Assembly: GCA_035573715.1 (NCBI GenBank)
Contig: DATLZZ010000010.1
Location: 246,746-310,745, forward strand
Source of the DNA: Candidatus Xenobia bacterium
GTDB taxonomy: Bacteria; Acidobacteriota; Terriglobia; Acidiferrales; 2-02-FULL-67-57
DNA: 64,000 nt
Direction of reading: 5' to 3'
The translations under genes were made by a program, and so were the position numbers. The notes under the pieces were generated by a model that made no database searches, was not told where the DNA came from, and worked only from the letters and a program-made list of their open reading frames with translations. Below, in pieces: positions 15,208 through 22,345 of the stretch (positions are counted from its first letter, which is position 1; each line of letters opens with the position of its first letter).

Positions 15208-16076
15208 AAACTCTCACCACCATCGCGGAAATGCAGACGGCGGTCGCCGGGCTGCGCGGCCTCGGCCAGCGCATCGGCTTCGTGCCGACGATGGGCGCGC
15301 TGCACGAGGGTCATCTCTCGCTCGTGCGCCGCTCCAAGCAGGAAACCGACGTGACGGTCGTCTCCATCTTCGTCAACCCGGCCCAGTTCGGCCCCCACGA
15401 GGACTACCTGCGCTACCCGCGCGACCTGGAGCGCGACTCCGCGCTTCTTCTCCGCGAAGGCGCCGACCTGCTCTTTGCGCCCTCGGTCGAAGAGATGTAC
15501 CCGAACGATTTTCAGAGCTACGTGAGCGTGGAGCGCGTCGCCACGCCGTTCGAAGGCCAGTTCCGCCCGGGACACTTCCGCGGCGTCGCCACGGTGGTGC
15601 TGAAGCTCTTCAACATCGTGCAGCCCCACCGCGCCTACTTCGGCCAGAAGGATGCCCAGCAGTGCGCCGTGGTGCGCCAACTGGTGCGGGACTTGAGCCT
15701 GCCGGTTGAAATCATTGTGTGTCCCATCGTCCGCGAGCCCGACGGCCTGGCGATGAGCTCCCGCAACGCCTACCTCAAGCCCGACGAGCGCCAGGCGGCC
15801 CTGGTGCTTTCGCGCAGCCTGGCGCGCGCCCGCGAATTGATCGAAGCCGGCGAGCGCCGCGCCGAAGTCCTGGCTCAGCAGGTACGCAACGTTATCGAGC
15901 AGGAACCCAAGGCGCGCATTGACTACGTGGGGGTCGCCGACGCCGACACCTTCGAAGCGCGCGACACCCTCGCCGGCCGCACCGTCATCGCCCTGGCGGT
16001 CTGGATCGGCGGCGCCCGCCTGCTCGACAACCTCATCGTCGAAGAGACCCCCGCCGGCCTGCAATTTCGCGCATAA
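15204..16076 (+). CDS. panC: Pantoate--beta-alanine ligase
   Basis: The GTG at 15204 overlaps the dinB2 stop (GTGA). VKTLTTIAEMQTAV...GFVPTMGALHEGHLSLV...VSIFVNP.QFGP.EDY..YPR... Confidence 0.93.
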   Translation: MKTLTTIAEMQTAVAGLRGLGQRIGFVPTMGALHEGHLSLVRRSKQETDVTVVSIFVNPAQFGPHEDYLRYPRDLERDSALLLREGADLLFAPSVEEMYPNDFQSYVSVERVATPFEGQFRPGHFRGVATVVLKLFNIVQPHRAYFGQKDAQQCAVVRQLVRDLSLPVEIIVCPIVREPDGLAMSSRNAYLKPDERQAALVLSRSLARARELIEAGERRAEVLAQQVRNVIEQEPKARIDYVGVADADTFEARDTLAGRTVIALAVWIGGARLLDNLIVEETPAGLQFRA

Positions 16077-16131
16077 TTCTCGCTGCGCTCAGGCAGCCGG
16101 AACCGCCCGGCTCGCTATCAAAGTAAGAGAC

Positions 16132-19100
16132 ATGGCGATGCGCCGGCGAAGACGAGTGGCAGTAGTTGTCTTCGTCCTGGGTGTGTTGCTGACCACCGTT
16201 TTCCTGTGGGTCTTTGTTTCTTCCACCGGGCAGGAAGCTGTCCGCCGGGCTCTCGAGCAGCAGACCGGCCTGACGGCGCGCGCGCAAAGTGTTGAGAGGC
16301 TGTGGCTGCCTCCCGGCGTCCTGATTCATGAAGTAGAGCTGGAAAGCGCCGGCCTCAGCCTCAAGGCGCGCGCGATGGAGGTTCGTGTAGCCTGGCTGCC
16401 GTTGCTGTGGGGCGAAGTCCGCGCCGGCGACATTCGCCTCACCGATGCCCGCCTCCACCTGAGTCCTCAGAGGGACGCCGCGGCCGCAGCCTCCGGCTTG
16501 CCGCGGGGCGCCGACTGGGAACTGAACAACCTTGACCTTTGGACGACCGTTGACGGCACTGAGAGGCAACTGTTGCACATTGACAGGGCCTCCTGGTCGC
16601 CCAGCCTGACGGAGAAGAGCCGTCTGGAGCTCTCCGGCTCCGCCGGTGACTCCGAGAGCTCGCGCATTCATATTCTGGGCGAAGCCACCGCCTGGCGCCC
16701 GCCGGCGCTCCCGGACGGCCGGCTCCAGCTCGAGCTCACGGAGTTTCCCGCACAGCCGTTGCTCGGACAAGTTGTCGGCGACTCCCGCCTGCTGGGTGCG
16801 GCGCGCTTGAACGGCAAGCTCACGGTGAACAGCAACACCGGCGCGGCCGAAAGCCAGGGCGCTTTGCAGGCAACGACGCCGGAAGGCGCGCAGCTCATCG
16901 CGCTCGACTTCAGGGCGCGCGCCACGCCGGCCCTGCTCACGCTCGACTCCGCTGCGGGCGAGCTGGCGGGAAACCGCTTCGAAGCCGCGGGCACCGCCGA
17001 CGGCTGGCAGGGAAGCGACCGCAAGACGGAACTTACGCTTCGCCTGCCCGATGCCCGCTTGGAGAAGGAGACGCGGTCGCAGATTCGCGCTGTGCTGGGT
17101 CGGGAGACGCTCGGCTTTGCTGAGAATGTCCGCGGGCGCTTCGCCGCCGAGCTGAAGCTGACGGAATCTGCCGGCCGCGCCCGCGTCGGCGGCCGCGCCG
17201 ACCTCAACGGCCTCACCTACGCCCGCAAGGGGATGCCGGCGCTGGAAGATATTCGCGGCCGGCTGGCGCTTGCGGGCGACGCAGTAGTGTTTGAGCAGGT
17301 CACGGCCAAGGCGTTCGACACGCTGACGCGCATCACCGGCCAGGCCCGCGGCGACCAGTTGGCGCTGCGCCTGGAGACTGACGACGTTCCCGCCGAGCGC
17401 ATCCTCGCCGAGCTGGCGCCCGACCTTCACTTGGCCGGCGTGCACGGCGTTGCGCGCTTGGAAGTCGACGTTGTTGGCCCGGCTGACCAGCCCACCCTCG
17501 CCGGCCGCGCTCACATCCGCGGTGTGGGCTTCGATCTGCGCCAGTTGCCGGTTCGCGGCGTCGAGGGCGAAGCTGCTTTTAACTCCGACCGGGTTCACTT
17601 CGAGTCGCTGCGCGGCCGCGCCGGCGGCTGCGAGGCGCGCGCCAGCGGCGAGACGCTGTTGGCGGCTTGGAGCAGCGGAACCATCGGCCAGGTCACGCTG
17701 CCGGAATGCGAGATCGCGCAAGTAGCCCATGTTGCCGAACTGGCGGGCATCGGCCGTTTCCCCGGCCTTGAGCCGGAGACGCTCGAAGGCCGCGGCACTG
17801 TGGCTCTCAGCTACGCGCACGAGCGTTGGCGCGCGGAACTGATGGTTCCTGGCGCGCGCTGGAGTCCTGCCTGGTTGGCCGCGCCGCTGGAAGATGTACG
17901 CGCCTCGGTGCGCATTGACCCCGAGGCCGTCCAGATTCGCAACCTCAGCGGGCGCTTCGGCTCCTCGCCCGTTCGCCTGCATGGCGAGGTCGGGCTGCGC
18001 GGAGCCGAGTCGGCCCCCTGGCAGATGGACCTTGAAGCTCATCTGACGCCGCAGGATGCCGAATCCCTCGTCCCCTCGCCTTGGCGCCGGTGGGTGCGCC
18101 TTGTGAATGAAGTGGAAGCGCGCGGCCGCCTGCGCGGCCAGCCCGAGGCCGTCACGCTCGAGGCCCAGATTCAAACCAACCCAACGCTGACCGCGTCGGC
18201 TGTTCCCGTTCCCGTGCCGGAGGCCGTGCCGGCCACCATTGACATTCGCGCTCGCTGGGACGATGTGGGCTTTGCGCTCGAGCGGTTCTCCGCTCGCTTT
18301 GGCAACACTGAGTTCAGCGGGCGTGGCTCACTCGAGCACAGTTCCGAACCTCAACTCGACTTCCACTTGCAGGCGCCGCCGGGCAGCTCGCTGGAAGAGC
18401 TGCTGGCGCTGGTCCGCTTGCCCGCGCCGTTGCAGTCGGCGCGCGGCAAGGCCGCAGTGGATCTCACCTTGCGAGGCTCGCTCGCCAACCCCCAATGGGC
18501 CGGCATGGTCGAACTGGCGGAAGTCTATCTGCCGAATGTGCTCGCTGAGCCGGTGCAGATGAAGGGTCGCCTGCTCCTCTCGGCCGACGGCCTTAGCCTC
18601 GACCGTGTGCGGATCACACAACCTTCCGGCGAGCTGGCAGTCAACGGGCGGCTGCGCTCCGAAGGGGTGTCCACGATCGAGATCGCCGGCGCCGCGGCCA
18701 ACCTCGACGACTTCTTCAGCCAGTGGCAGGGCGGTTCATTCAACTGGTCGGAGCAAACTTTTCTGCGCGAGCATCCCTTCCAGGTTTCGCTGGCGCTGGA
18801 GCGCGCGCAGTTTCTGGACCTCACCTTCACCCACGTGCGCGGGCGGCTCGAGCAGTCGGAGGGGAAGCTCAGCCTGAGCATCCCCCATTTCGGGCTGGGC
18901 TCGGGTCACGGCCGGCTGGAGGGAAGCGTCGAGCCGGCGGACGACCAGTTGCGCGCCAGCCTGGAACTGAACCAGGTTCCCGTCGAAATGCTGCTGGGCG
19001 ATTTCCTCAAAGCCCAGCGCATCGTCACCGGCCCACTCGACCTCCACGTGGAGCTGACCGGCCCCGTGGGCTCGCGGCAGGACTACTTGCGCACCGCCAG

Positions 19101-19566
19101 CGGCCTGGCTCGCTTCACCGTCACCCAGGGCCGCATTCAGAAGGGCACGCTGCCGGAACGTCTGTTCGCCCTGGCCGTGCTGCTGCGCGAGGGTCCCTTC
19201 GGCTGGGGCCTCTTGAGCCTGGGCAAGGTCTGGAACCCGCCCAACCTGCGCAAGTTCGACACCTGGAGCGGAACGCTGGAGCTGAGGGAAGGGAAGGCGG
19301 AGCTGGTGGAGAGCAATCTGGTTTCGAACACCTACAACGTGAACCTGCAAGGCGAAGTGGATATGCAGGCCGGCACGATGCAACTGCACGGCGAGGGCAA
19401 CTTCCACCCGCCTTACCAGTTCGACTTCAGCATCAAGAGCATGGTAGAAGGCCTAGGGCGGCTCTTCCAGATTGTGCGCGGGCGTAAGGGACACAACTTT
19501 GAATTCGACGTCGCCGGCGAACTGGCCGGCACCAAGCGCATCGAAAACTTCCGCTTCAAGGATTGA
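16132..19566 (+). CDS. AsmA/TamB-like giant envelope protein
   Basis: ATG 16132 gives MAMRRRRRVAVVVFVLGVLLTTVFLWVF (N-terminal anchor). It is followed by about 1100 aa of repetitive beta-rich sequence of the AsmA-family type. The track start at 15919 overlaps panC. Confidence 0.6.
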   Translation: MAMRRRRRVAVVVFVLGVLLTTVFLWVFVSSTGQEAVRRALEQQTGLTARAQSVERLWLPPGVLIHEVELESAGLSLKARAMEVRVAWLPLLWGEVRAGDIRLTDARLHLSPQRDAAAAASGLPRGADWELNNLDLWTTVDGTERQLLHIDRASWSPSLTEKSRLELSGSAGDSESSRIHILGEATAWRPPALPDGRLQLELTEFPAQPLLGQVVGDSRLLGAARLNGKLTVNSNTGAAESQGALQATTPEGAQLIALDFRARATPALLTLDSAAGELAGNRFEAAGTADGWQGSDRKTELTLRLPDARLEKETRSQIRAVLGRETLGFAENVRGRFAAELKLTESAGRARVGGRADLNGLTYARKGMPALEDIRGRLALAGDAVVFEQVTAKAFDTLTRITGQARGDQLALRLETDDVPAERILAELAPDLHLAGVHGVARLEVDVVGPADQPTLAGRAHIRGVGFDLRQLPVRGVEGEAAFNSDRVHFESLRGRAGGCEARASGETLLAAWSSGTIGQVTLPECEIAQVAHVAELAGIGRFPGLEPETLEGRGTVALSYAHERWRAELMVPGARWSPAWLAAPLEDVRASVRIDPEAVQIRNLSGRFGSSPVRLHGEVGLRGAESAPWQMDLEAHLTPQDAESLVPSPWRRWVRLVNEVEARGRLRGQPEAVTLEAQIQTNPTLTASAVPVPVPEAVPATIDIRARWDDVGFALERFSARFGNTEFSGRGSLEHSSEPQLDFHLQAPPGSSLEELLALVRLPAPLQSARGKAAVDLTLRGSLANPQWAGMVELAEVYLPNVLAEPVQMKGRLLLSADGLSLDRVRITQPSGELAVNGRLRSEGVSTIEIAGAAANLDDFFSQWQGGSFNWSEQTFLREHPFQVSLALERAQFLDLTFTHVRGRLEQSEGKLSLSIPHFGLGSGHGRLEGSVEPADDQLRASLELNQVPVEMLLGDFLKAQRIVTGPLDLHVELTGPVGSRQDYLRTASGLARFTVTQGRIQKGTLPERLFALAVLLREGPFGWGLLSLGKVWNPPNLRKFDTWSGTLELREGKAELVESNLVSNTYNVNLQGEVDMQAGTMQLHGEGNFHPPYQFDFSIKSMVEGLGRLFQIVRGRKGHNFEFDVAGELAGTKRIENFRFKD

Positions 19567-19631
19567 GAGAGGTGCTGATGCATCTTTTACTGGCACTGAA
19601 CCCATCTAATAATGCGAATGAGGGAAAAGCT

Positions 19632-19934
19632 ATGAGCCGACGCGACCGCAAGGTTATTATCCTGGCCGCCCTGATGGCCGCTCTGCTGAGCCTGGCCGCG
19701 GCCGTGGCTGTCTTTGCCAAGGCCACCGAAGACGACGTGGCCAAGGTCAAGCCGGGCATGTCCCGCGCCGAAGTGCTCGACATCATGGGCAAGCCCGACA
19801 AGGACCAGGAAGTGAAGGACGAGGGCGAGCTTTGCCGGCTCCTTGCCTACAAGTCGGTCGGCCGCTACAGGGTCGTCAACATCTGGTTCGACTGCGCCGA
19901 CAAGGTCAAAGCCGTCGACAAAGTCGCTCGCTAA
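19632..19934 (+). CDS. Small membrane-anchored BamE/SmpA-OmlA-like protein
   Basis: MSRRDRKVIILAALMAALLSLAAAVAVFA followed by VKPGMSRAEVLDIMGKPD, the signature of BamE-like domains. Confidence 0.55.
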   Translation: MSRRDRKVIILAALMAALLSLAAAVAVFAKATEDDVAKVKPGMSRAEVLDIMGKPDKDQEVKDEGELCRLLAYKSVGRYRVVNIWFDCADKVKAVDKVAR

Positions 19935-20013
19935 CCCCCCTGCTGTCTTCCTGAGCGGAGTCCGGGCCGCCGCAGGCGGGTCGGCGAAGGCGAAGGATCT
20001 GCCTTTCCATCTC

Positions 20014-20472
20014 CTACTCCAGCGAGGCCAGAACCTCCGCCGCGTGTTTCCCGGGTCTCACCTTGTCGAACACTTTCTTCACTTTGCCGTCCGGCCCGAT
20101 GAGCACCGTCGTGCGCACGATGCCCATGAACTTCCTCCCCAGAAAACTCTTCTGCTGCCACACGCCATAGGCCTTGAGCATTCCCTTCTCGGGGTCGCTC
20201 AGCAGCGTGAAGTTCAGCTTGTGTTTCTTCTTGAACTTCGCCAGCGTCTCCGGCTTGTCCGCCGAGCAGCCCAGGACGATGGCGTTCTTGCGGGCAAAGG
20301 CGTCGCGGGCGTCACGAAACTCGTGCGCCTCAATGGTTCACCCCGGCGTCATCGCTTTGGGGAAGAAAAACAGGACCACGTGGTGCCCCTTGAAGTCGCT
20401 CAGTTTGAGGCTCGTCCCTTCGTCGGTCGTCAGCCTAAACGCCGGCGCCGCCGCCCCTTCCTTCAACCCCAT
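20014..20472 (-). CDS. bcp: Bcp-type peroxiredoxin with in-frame TGA at the peroxidatic Cys position (candidate selenoprotein, or a pseudogene)
   Basis: Absent from the ORF track. My translation is MGLKEGAAAPAFRLTTDEGTSLKLSDFKGHHVVLFFFPKAMTPG[TGA]TIEAHEFRDARDAFARKNAIVLGCSADKPETLAKFKKKHKLNFTLLSDPEKGMLKAYGVWQQKSFLGRKFMGIVRTTVLIGPDGKVKKVFDKVRPGKHAAEVLASLE*. Codon 45 (complement of 20338-20340) replaces the Cys of the universal TPGCT motif. GAGGAGGG RBS upstream. Confidence 0.8.
20308..20329 (-). promoter_or_regulatory. SECIS-like hairpin downstream of the Bcp UGA
   Basis: The mRNA reads UGA-ACCAUUGA-GGCGCACGA-GUU-UCGUG-A-CGCC. That is a 5-bp plus 4-bp stem with a bulged A and an apical loop beginning with G. 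The loop G is about 20 nt from the U of UGA. Confidence 0.45.
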
Positions 20473-20496
20473 CGGAGTCCCTCCTCAACGCGGATT

Positions 20497-20868
20497 CTAC
20501 CACTTCCCGTTTCGCCGCCGGGCGAACCGCAGCCCGTGTACGCCCAGGATTGCTAGGCAGATCGCCACCGCCACCCACGTCAACAATTGCTGCGACACGT
20601 CGGGGTAGATGACCGACTCGAGATAGTGGATCAGGAAGGATTCCGTGTAGGGCGTTTGGCCCGCGCGCTGGAGCGACCAGTTTTCGAGCAGCGTCAGCGG
20701 GCACGGCCACAGCAACAGCTCAATGAGAATCCCGTAGACCACCGAGCCGATGTGCAGCCAGCGCAGCAGCGGTCGCCCGCGGGTCGCCAGCCATCCCAGC
20801 AGCACCCACAGAATCCACGCCGCGTGCAGCGTAAACGCCGCTATCGCCAGAACGTGGTAGATTCTCAC
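20497..20868 (-). CDS. DUF2784-like small membrane protein
   Basis: VRIYHVLAIAAFTLHAAWILWVLLGWL...LHIGSVVYGILIELLLWPCPLTLLENWL.R. I prefer the GTG start at 20868 because the track start at 20949 would overlap the divergent permease gene. Confidence 0.6.
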   Translation of the reverse strand: MRIYHVLAIAAFTLHAAWILWVLLGWLATRGRPLLRWLHIGSVVYGILIELLLWPCPLTLLENWSLQRAGQTPYTESFLIHYLESVIYPDVSQQLLTWVAVAICLAILGVHGLRFARRRNGKW

Positions 20869-20907
20869 GGCCGTTGAACCGATTGTATCCCGTCGGAGGC
20901 TCGCTCG

Positions 20908-22221
20908 ATGGCTGAATTCTTGCGCCGCTTCTTCCAGCTCGACGCCCACGGCACCACGGTGCGCCGCGAAGTCGTCGCCGGCGTCACCACCTTCGTCACC
21001 ATGGCCTACATCATCGTGGTCAACCCGGCGATTCTCTCCGCCGCCAAGATTCCCGCCGGACCTTCAATGGTGGCGACGATTCTCACCGCTGTCTTTGGCA
21101 CGCTGCTGATGGGCTTCTTCGCCCGCCGCCCCTTCGCCATCGCCCCCTACATGGGCGAGAACGCCTTCATCGCCTACACAGTTGTCGTGGGGCTCGGTTA
21201 CACCTGGCAGCAGGCTCTCGCTTCGGTCTTCCTCGCCGGTGTGCTATTCATCCTCTTGACCGTGGCGCGGGTGCGCCAGTGGCTGGTCGAAGGCGTCCCG
21301 GCCGGCCTGCGCTACAGCTTCGCGGTCGGCGTCGGCCTGTTCATGACCTTCATCGGCTTGAACGAAACCGGCATCGTGCGCCTCGGCGTCGAAGGGGCGC
21401 CGGTGCGCATGGGCGCGTTCACGTCCGCGCCGGTATTGATCTCGCTCCTCGGTTTTGTGCTGATCGTGGCGATGATGATTCTCAAGCTGCGCGGCGCCAT
21501 GCTTCTCGGTGTGCTGGCGACCGCCGCCATCGCCTTCGCCACCGGTGTCGCCCAGGCGCCCGATGCCTGGCTCAGTGCCCCGCCCAGCCTCGCGCCCATC
21601 TTCTGGCAGCTTGATTTCTCCGCGCTCTGGAGCGTCGGGTTTCTGGCGGTGATGCTGACGACGTTCGTGATGGCGTTCGTGGATACGATGGGCACGCTCA
21701 TCGGCGTCTCTGCTCGCGCCGGATTCCTCGACGCCGAAGGCAATCTGCCGCAGATTGAGCGCCCCATGCTGGCCGATGCGCTCGCCACCACGTTCGCTGC
21801 CGCGGTGGGAACGACTACCGCCGGCGCTTACATCGAATCCGCCACCGGCGTCGAAGCCGGCGGCCGCACCGGCTTGACCGCCATCGTCACGGCGCTGCTG
21901 TTTTTGCTGGCGCTCTTCTTCGCGCCCGTTGTCGCCGCCATTCCGCCGCAGGCCTACGGCCCGGCGCTGATCGTGGTTGGCTTGCTGATGGTCAGTCCGA
22001 TTACTCGCGTCAACTTTGATGACCTCACAGAATTGGTGCCTGCGTTCGCTACCGTCGCGCTGATGAGCTTCAGCTTCAACATCGGCGTCGGCATGACCGC
22101 CGGCTTCGTGCTCTATCCTTTTTGCAAGCTGGTCGCGGGCCGCGCTCGCGAAATCAAGCCCGGCCTCTGGGTTCTCTTCGCGCTCTCGCTGCTCTTTTAC
22201 GCCTTCTATCCCTATCGCTAA
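20908..22221 (+). CDS. NCS2/AzgA-family purine (adenine/guanine/hypoxanthine) permease
   Basis: MAEFLRRFFQLDAHGTTVRREVVAGVTTFVTMAYIIVVNPAILS... Multi-TM, 437 aa. Confidence 0.88.
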   Translation: MAEFLRRFFQLDAHGTTVRREVVAGVTTFVTMAYIIVVNPAILSAAKIPAGPSMVATILTAVFGTLLMGFFARRPFAIAPYMGENAFIAYTVVVGLGYTWQQALASVFLAGVLFILLTVARVRQWLVEGVPAGLRYSFAVGVGLFMTFIGLNETGIVRLGVEGAPVRMGAFTSAPVLISLLGFVLIVAMMILKLRGAMLLGVLATAAIAFATGVAQAPDAWLSAPPSLAPIFWQLDFSALWSVGFLAVMLTTFVMAFVDTMGTLIGVSARAGFLDAEGNLPQIERPMLADALATTFAAAVGTTTAGAYIESATGVEAGGRTGLTAIVTALLFLLALFFAPVVAAIPPQAYGPALIVVGLLMVSPITRVNFDDLTELVPAFATVALMSFSFNIGVGMTAGFVLYPFCKLVAGRAREIKPGLWVLFALSLLFYAFYPYR

Positions 22222-22270: not shown

Positions 22271-22345
22271 TGGCTGGGGCGCCTGGATTCGAACCAGGAC
22301 CTCTGGATTAACAGTCCAGCGTGCTGCCAGACGCACTCCGCCCCA
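22271..22345 (-). tRNA. tRNA-Asn (anticodon GTT), CCA encoded
   Basis: The reverse complement folds as a cloverleaf. Acceptor TGGGGCG/CGCCCCA, D stem GTGC/GCAC, anticodon stem CTGGA/TCCAG with loop CTGTTAA, T arm CCTGG-TTCGAAT-CCAGG, discriminator G, CCA. 75 nt. Confidence 0.93.

Follow-up and report, generated by a model that had tools for sequence, protein, structure and literature searches.

A bcp gene with UGA at its peroxidatic codon: a probable selenocysteine peroxiredoxin from an Acidobacteriota-like lineage

The 64-kb stretch of DNA analysed here (referred to below as the window) includes on its minus strand, at 20014-20472, a gene which, by its sequence, belongs to the Bcp/PrxQ class of peroxiredoxins and in which the codon for the peroxidatic residue is UGA. 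We consider this bcp to be a genuine selenoprotein gene with selenocysteine (Sec) at codon 45, and place the probability of this reading at about 0.9. Comparison with homologs indicates that the position of the stop at the peroxidatic codon is certainly beyond chance, because 19 further homologs have TGA in the same column.

Bacterial peroxiredoxins containing Sec (Sec-Prx) were already known, as the initial annotation had pointed out. Forty-three Sec-Prx genes from the Sargasso Sea were placed under COG1225, which is Bcp (PMC1088965), 12 genes were reported from finished genomes together with several inferred Cys-to-Sec conversions (PMC1794560), and Table 1 of a 2026 review includes Prx (PF00578, TxxU) among the selenoproteins with experimental support, with reference to Sohling et al. 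2001 (PMC13188914). The bacterial Sec-Prx family (TxxU/PxxxTxxU, PF00578, COG1225) and the window Bcp share the domain, the motif and the position of Sec; both have widespread Cys homologs and a hairpin in the coding region after the UGA. The window bcp is a further member of this family, which was established between 2001 and 2005, and conceptually it brings nothing new to selenoprotein biology. It differs from Sec-Prx in general in its Acidobacteriota-like lineage and in belonging to a sub-group with the signature (F/Y)FFPKA(M/D)TPGU, half of which carries a Cys at CP+24 (positions are counted from the peroxidatic residue, CP). PrxU of Eubacterium acidaminophilum (Sohling et al. 2001, as cited in PMC13188914) resembles the window Bcp in having a peroxidatic Sec and provides an experimental precedent for the production of Sec-Prx proteins. 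It represents a different Prx subfamily, and membership of the window protein in PrxU (NF040737) was rejected, since it scores 37.5 bits where 270 are required.

Read from 20472 to 20014, the minus strand translates as MGLKEGAAAPAFRLTTDEGTSLKLSDFKGHHVVLFFFPKAMTPG*TIEAHEFRDARDAFARKNAIVLGCSADKPETLAKFKKKHKLNFTLLSDPEKGMLKAYGVWQQKSFLGRKFMGIVRTTVLIGPDGKVKKVFDKVRPGKHAAEVLASLE* (asterisks, stop codons), with a single internal TGA (features are listed in Table 1). The active-site residues are Pro38, Thr42, Sec45 (predicted) and Arg120, and Cys69 is the sole Cys elsewhere in the protein. The initial annotation had described a hidden, full-length Bcp of 152 residues on this strand, with TGA exactly at the peroxidatic Cys. 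Translation and profile scores bear this out, and the TGA stands in the place of the residue that follows TPG in PxxxTxxC. The gene had also been thought to be unannotated: indeed, the mechanical ORF list contains only an N-terminal fragment of 44 aa and a C-terminal fragment of 55 aa, and the public assembly calls fragments of these same two sizes.

Table 1. Features of the bcp locus (window coordinates)
Feature	Coordinates	Strand	Description and basis
Sec-type Bcp/PrxQ peroxiredoxin CDS (predicted)	20014..20472	minus	complete, 152 codons + TAG stop; translation
In-frame UGA, predicted Sec45 (peroxidatic, TPG-U-T)	20338..20340	minus	homolog column, dN/dS, Logan contig L163
Terminal stop TAG of bcp	20016-20014	minus	translation
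Shine-Dalgarno GGAGG	20480..20484	minus	7 nt 5' of ATG at 20472-20470; direct sequence reading
Putative bacterial SECIS hairpin	20308..20329	minus	two stems (lower, 4 bp; upper, 5 bp) with a bulged A; apical loop GUU
Cys69 TGC codon (CP+24, VLG-C-SAD)	20266..20268	minus	candidate resolving residue
DUF2784 membrane-protein gene	20497..20868	minus	upstream of bcp; Pfam DUF2784 5.1e-22; gene call in L163

For profile scoring, Cys was put in place of the TGA. The Pfam AhpC-TSA domain (PF00578) spans the TGA and extends over residues 6-133 (E=3.3e-37; 127.6 bits against a cut-off of 26), and the NCBIfam Bcp equivalog NF006960 covers residues 3-151 with a score of 165.6 bits (cut-off, 140). The nearest solved structures by sequence in the PDB are those of X. 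campestris Bcp/PrxQ (5iph, 5iiz and 3gkk; E=5e-24, residues 12-151), and the window protein is like this enzyme and the E. coli-type Bcp (NF006960) in class, size and the Thr/Arg pair. The PxxxTxxC motif is present as P38-K-A-M-T42-P-G-U45 together with R120, with Sec in the Cys position. In the homolog alignment (A2), P38, T42, G44, C/U45 and R120 are invariant, and the window protein retains all family-invariant residues.

The X. campestris enzyme has a peroxidatic Cys and a resolving Cys in alpha3, whereas the window Bcp has a predicted Sec and, in the alignment to X. campestris PrxQ, a Lys at the alpha3 position. The alpha2 position (CP+5), which holds a resolving Cys in ~60% of PrxQ members (PMC4749874), is His in the window Bcp, as had been noted at the outset, so that a resolving Cys is absent from both alpha2 and alpha3. 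This does not disqualify the protein as a PrxQ, since the resolving Cys is optional in this class and about a third of its members have none (PMC4749874).

The homolog set comprised 80 loci from species-representative genomes and 80 from metagenomes, in which the codon for residue 45 was read by tblastn; one locus left this site uncovered. With the window counted, the peroxidatic column contains TGA in 20 of 160 sequences, TGC or TGT in the other 140 and TAA or TAG in none. The alignment of orthologs thereby upholds the Sec/Cys pair that the initial annotation had proposed. By source, TGA occurs at 13 of 79 genome loci and at 6 of 80 metagenome loci. The three nearest relatives (L001, L002 and L003; 69-74% identity), all from Acidiferrales/Terriglobia MAGs, have TGA, and the other carriers include further Acidobacteriota, Gemmatimonadota, one deltaproteobacterial MAG and Chloroflexota (Caldilineaceae). 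Judged by its nearest relatives, the window probably comes from a member of the Acidobacteriota. In TGA-type genes the frame 3' of the TGA remains open for 106-112 codons up to a normal stop, L003 reaching a contig edge.

These comparisons also bear on the possibility that the window bcp is a decaying Cys-type gene, inactivated when a nonsense mutation turned its TGC or TGT into TGA. Such a conversion takes one base change, gene callers handle bcp as broken, and Sec machinery was not seen within the 64-kb window. We nevertheless regard decay as very unlikely: across several phyla, homologs have TGA at the same codon and never another stop there, bcp still has its invariant residues and its ribosome-binding site, and the 107 codons downstream are intact. 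Additional lesions, which had been named in advance as the mark of a decaying pseudogene, are absent. Values of dN/dS for the region 3' of the TGA are 0.12, 0.21 and 0.26 in comparison with L001, L002 and L003, respectively, with dS of 0.7-1.2. As measured by these values, this part of bcp is under purifying selection across about one synonymous substitution per site.

An error of sequencing or assembly that replaced a real TGC or TGT by TGA is extremely improbable. The two codons are again one base away and the window is probably metagenome-assembled, but an independent assembler provides the same sequence: in the Logan assembly of public run SRR7882662, a contig of 5,891 bp (L163) is 100% identical to window positions 15281-21171, TGA included. 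The contig is perhaps derived from the same reads as the window, so that it rules out a mistake made in assembly but not one made in sequencing. The orthologs settle the latter point: the three nearest relatives, which stem from separate MAG projects, have TGA too, and the TGA of the window is accompanied by the features of Sec-type genes (Phe at CP-8, Ala at CP-5, no Cys at CP+5 and GCG as the codon for Ala+4).

A third alternative is that the UGA is read without selenium, either by near-cognate readthrough with Trp or Cys or by a Cys-charged tRNA(Sec). This would agree with evidence for a SECIS that is only moderate, and with the lack of visible Sec machinery in the 64 kb. Trp or Gly at the essential nucleophile would abolish activity, yet purifying selection is strong; a Cys product gives no reason to keep TGA over a dS of ~1; and TxxU is a documented Sec form of the Prx family. 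Moreover, TGA functions elsewhere in the window as an ordinary stop, for 9 of the 28 long coding-like ORFs. Selenium-free decoding is accordingly judged very unlikely. Genome-wide reassignment of UGA was rejected on the same count of ORFs ending in TGA. With pseudogene, sequencing error and code change all rejected, site-specific recoding therefore remains.

A neighbour-joining (NJ) tree suggests at least 9 Sec/Cys switches. This figure is probably an overestimate, because proteins of 150 residues resolve poorly and Sec-type genes have a common FFP-KA signature, and also because some Cys-type genes carry the Sec-type signature. The latter are few (L041, L049, L076, L079 and L100).

The machinery for Sec insertion was sought in the sequences at hand. 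E. coli SelA, SelB and SelD probes gave no tblastn match in the 64-kb window or in the 160 locus flanks, and ARAGORN detected no tRNA-Sec in the window (where it found tRNA-Asn only) or near any Sec-type locus. No second TGA-interrupted coding region was found in the 64 kb, which contained ordinary gene ends only. The absence of sel genes from 64 kb says little about a multi-megabase genome. Acidobacteria were credited with selenoproteins in 2006 (PMC1794560), and we infer that the source genome carries selABCD; the window bcp can be used as a marker that it should.

The initial annotation had also proposed a SECIS-like stem-loop downstream of the UGA. This hairpin, GGCGCACGA-GUU-UCGUG-A-CGCC (20329-20308), begins 8 nt after the A of the UGA (11 nt from the U). 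In the bacterial SECIS (bSECIS) model given in Fig. 2 of PMC13188914, the loop is 3-9 nt long and has a G at its first or second position, the upper stem comprises 4-16 bp, UGA and loop are 16-37 nt apart, and the MFE is at most -7.5 kcal/mol. With its GUU loop, 5-bp upper stem, 17 nt spacing and -13.0 kcal/mol, the window hairpin agrees with the model on 4 of 4 criteria, and the same putative element is present in L001, L002, L003 and L160. Like the E. coli fdhF-type SECIS and the bSECIS consensus, it lies directly 3' of the UGA within the coding sequence, at a spacing in the 16-37 nt range, and includes a bulge and a small loop starting with G-U. It has no sequence similarity to the fdhF-type element.

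Position, shape and spacing of the proposed element thus stand, but the strength attributed to this evidence does not: the folding energy is unexceptional and the specificity of the model is low. Compared with shuffled sequence, the hairpin is unremarkable in energy (z = -0.27 over 66 nt and z = -1.05 over 39 nt). In our own implementation of the strict bSECIS model, 8 of 20 Sec-type and 35 of 140 Cys-type genes pass (p=0.13), so the model does not separate the two types and accepts 25% of Cys-type homologs. RNAalifold applied to 14 Sec-type sequences returned no consensus structure, covariation for this hairpin was not above that of shuffles, and Rfam searches at gathering and at permissive thresholds returned only tRNA and noise, with no model matching the hairpin.

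Pairing in the register of the hairpin is 77%, versus 31-50% for slid registers. Sec-type genes form on average 6.85 of the 9 pairs and Cys-type genes 5.49 (p=2.6e-4). Since the hairpin overlaps a conserved peptide, E-A-x-E-F-R-D-A, the comparison was also restricted to genes encoding the FRD motif, with a similar outcome (7.19/9 versus 5.77/9, p=2e-4). The pairs of the lower stem are present in 94-100% of Sec-type and in 30-56% of Cys-type genes. At Ala+4, the codon GCG, whose third-base G pairs with the C of GAC, is used by 14 of 17 Sec-type genes versus 39 of 134 Cys-type genes (p=3e-5), and at Arg+8 the codon CGT is used by 8 of 17 versus 11 of 98 (p=1e-3). Sec-type genes appear in this alignment to maintain the lower stem through synonymous codon choice, the pairing and codon statistics and their p values being ones that ignore shared ancestry. 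The hairpin at 20308-20329 is very probably a SECIS; this assignment draws on model fit and codon choice, not on covariation.

Inside bcp, just 5' of the UGA (20372-20389, minus strand), a stem with a T-run after it (GTTTTTCTTC) resembles a terminator; the sequence there encodes VVLFFFP. One terminator-like site was found and 1.3 are expected by chance. The stem most likely results incidentally from the Phe-rich motif.

From these features we infer the following scheme for synthesis and catalysis. SelB with Sec-tRNA(Sec), recruited by the coding-region hairpin 8 nt 3' of the UGA, would recode codon 45, yielding an enzyme of 152 residues instead of a stub of 44. The Sec45 selenolate, activated by Thr42 and Arg120 in the PxxxTxxU context, would attack the hydroperoxide and be converted to a selenenic acid, which could then be reduced either through a Sec45-Cys69 selenenylsulfide or directly by a thioredoxin-type reductant. 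The classical PrxQ positions, occupied by His (CP+5) and Lys (alpha3), would be unusable for recycling. In the second of these routes the protein would act as a "1-Sec" peroxiredoxin, with a thioredoxin-like partner as its direct reductant. A second Cys is absent from five Sec-type homologs, which therefore must work as this "1-Sec" type, and for the same reason a partner Cys is clearly not obligatory in Sec-type Bcp.

The first route is raised by the distribution of Cys69. A Cys at CP+24 occurs in 9 of 18 Sec-type proteins and in 0 of 140 Cys-type proteins, and only where the Cys at CP+5 is missing. The carriers besides the window are L001, L002, L008, L009, L010, L012, L093 and L098. At the position aligned with Cys69, X. 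campestris PrxQ has the Val of its LGVSRD sequence, and the "gisg" segment, which holds CP+24, is part of the active-site-proximal signature of PrxQ (PMC4749874). The five resolving positions recognised in Prx are located at the N-terminus, the C-terminus, alpha2, alpha3 and alpha5 (PMC4749874), and CP+24 is not among them. Sec-type proteins also differ from Cys-type proteins at two other positions: CP-8 (20362-20364, minus strand) is Phe in 17 of 18 Sec-type proteins versus Tyr in 134 of 140 Cys-type proteins, and CP-5 (20353-20355, minus strand) is Ala in 17 of 18 Sec-type proteins, whereas 93 of 140 Cys-type proteins have Asp there.

It is conceivable, although we give the idea rather little credence, that Cys69, located where strand beta4 (the strand after helix alpha2) ends, serves as a dedicated partner of Sec45 and forms an intramolecular selenenylsulfide with it in an Acidobacteriota-type sub-group of Sec-Bcp. 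If so, it would represent a sixth resolving position in the Prx fold, occurring only together with selenocysteine. The nine cases of a CP+24 Cys may have arisen in just one to three evolutionary events, and a Sec-specific resolving role for this residue may be taken as a lead only, the association being correlational. In a non-exhaustive literature search we met no earlier description of the CP+24 Cys or of the Sec-type sub-group, and the Sec-linked CP+24 Cys is the sole point here which is possibly new.

The practical value of the present analysis is one of annotation correction. Sec-type Bcp genes vanish from protein databases because standard gene callers split or drop them. In L163, for example, gene calling gives a 44-aa stub with AhpC-TSA/Redoxin Pfam hits and a 55-aa orphan without a hit. 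Among the matches listed from a database of 5.8 billion sequences, no full-length protein exceeds 61% identity to the window Bcp, and all are Cys-type, despite the presence in genomes of TGA-type relatives at 72-74% identity. Proteomes of such Acidobacteriota-like bacteria from soil and sediment thus under-report an antioxidant enzyme and hide a probable use of selenium.

The DUF2784 gene and bcp are probably co-transcribed, since the stop of the former lies 24 nt before the ATG of bcp. None of the 160 related loci shows this pairing, and relatives do not share the synteny of bcp with the DUF2784, BamE-like and permease genes.

Stop usage in the 28 long coding-like ORFs of the window, a small sample, is TAG 14, TGA 9 and TAA 5. 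In genomes of 65% GC, TGA is usually the dominant stop, so that usage dominated by TAG looks unusual.

In two of the nearest relatives, a tRNA-Asn(GTT) gene is located directly upstream of bcp and in the same orientation (L002, 1983-2058; L003, 2833-2908). The corresponding tRNA-Asn(GTT) gene of the window (22271-22345, minus strand) lies 1.8 kb upstream of bcp, with the DUF2784 gene and a gene for a permease of the xanthine/uracil family in between, an arrangement which suggests an insertion or rearrangement beside the tRNA-Asn gene in the window.
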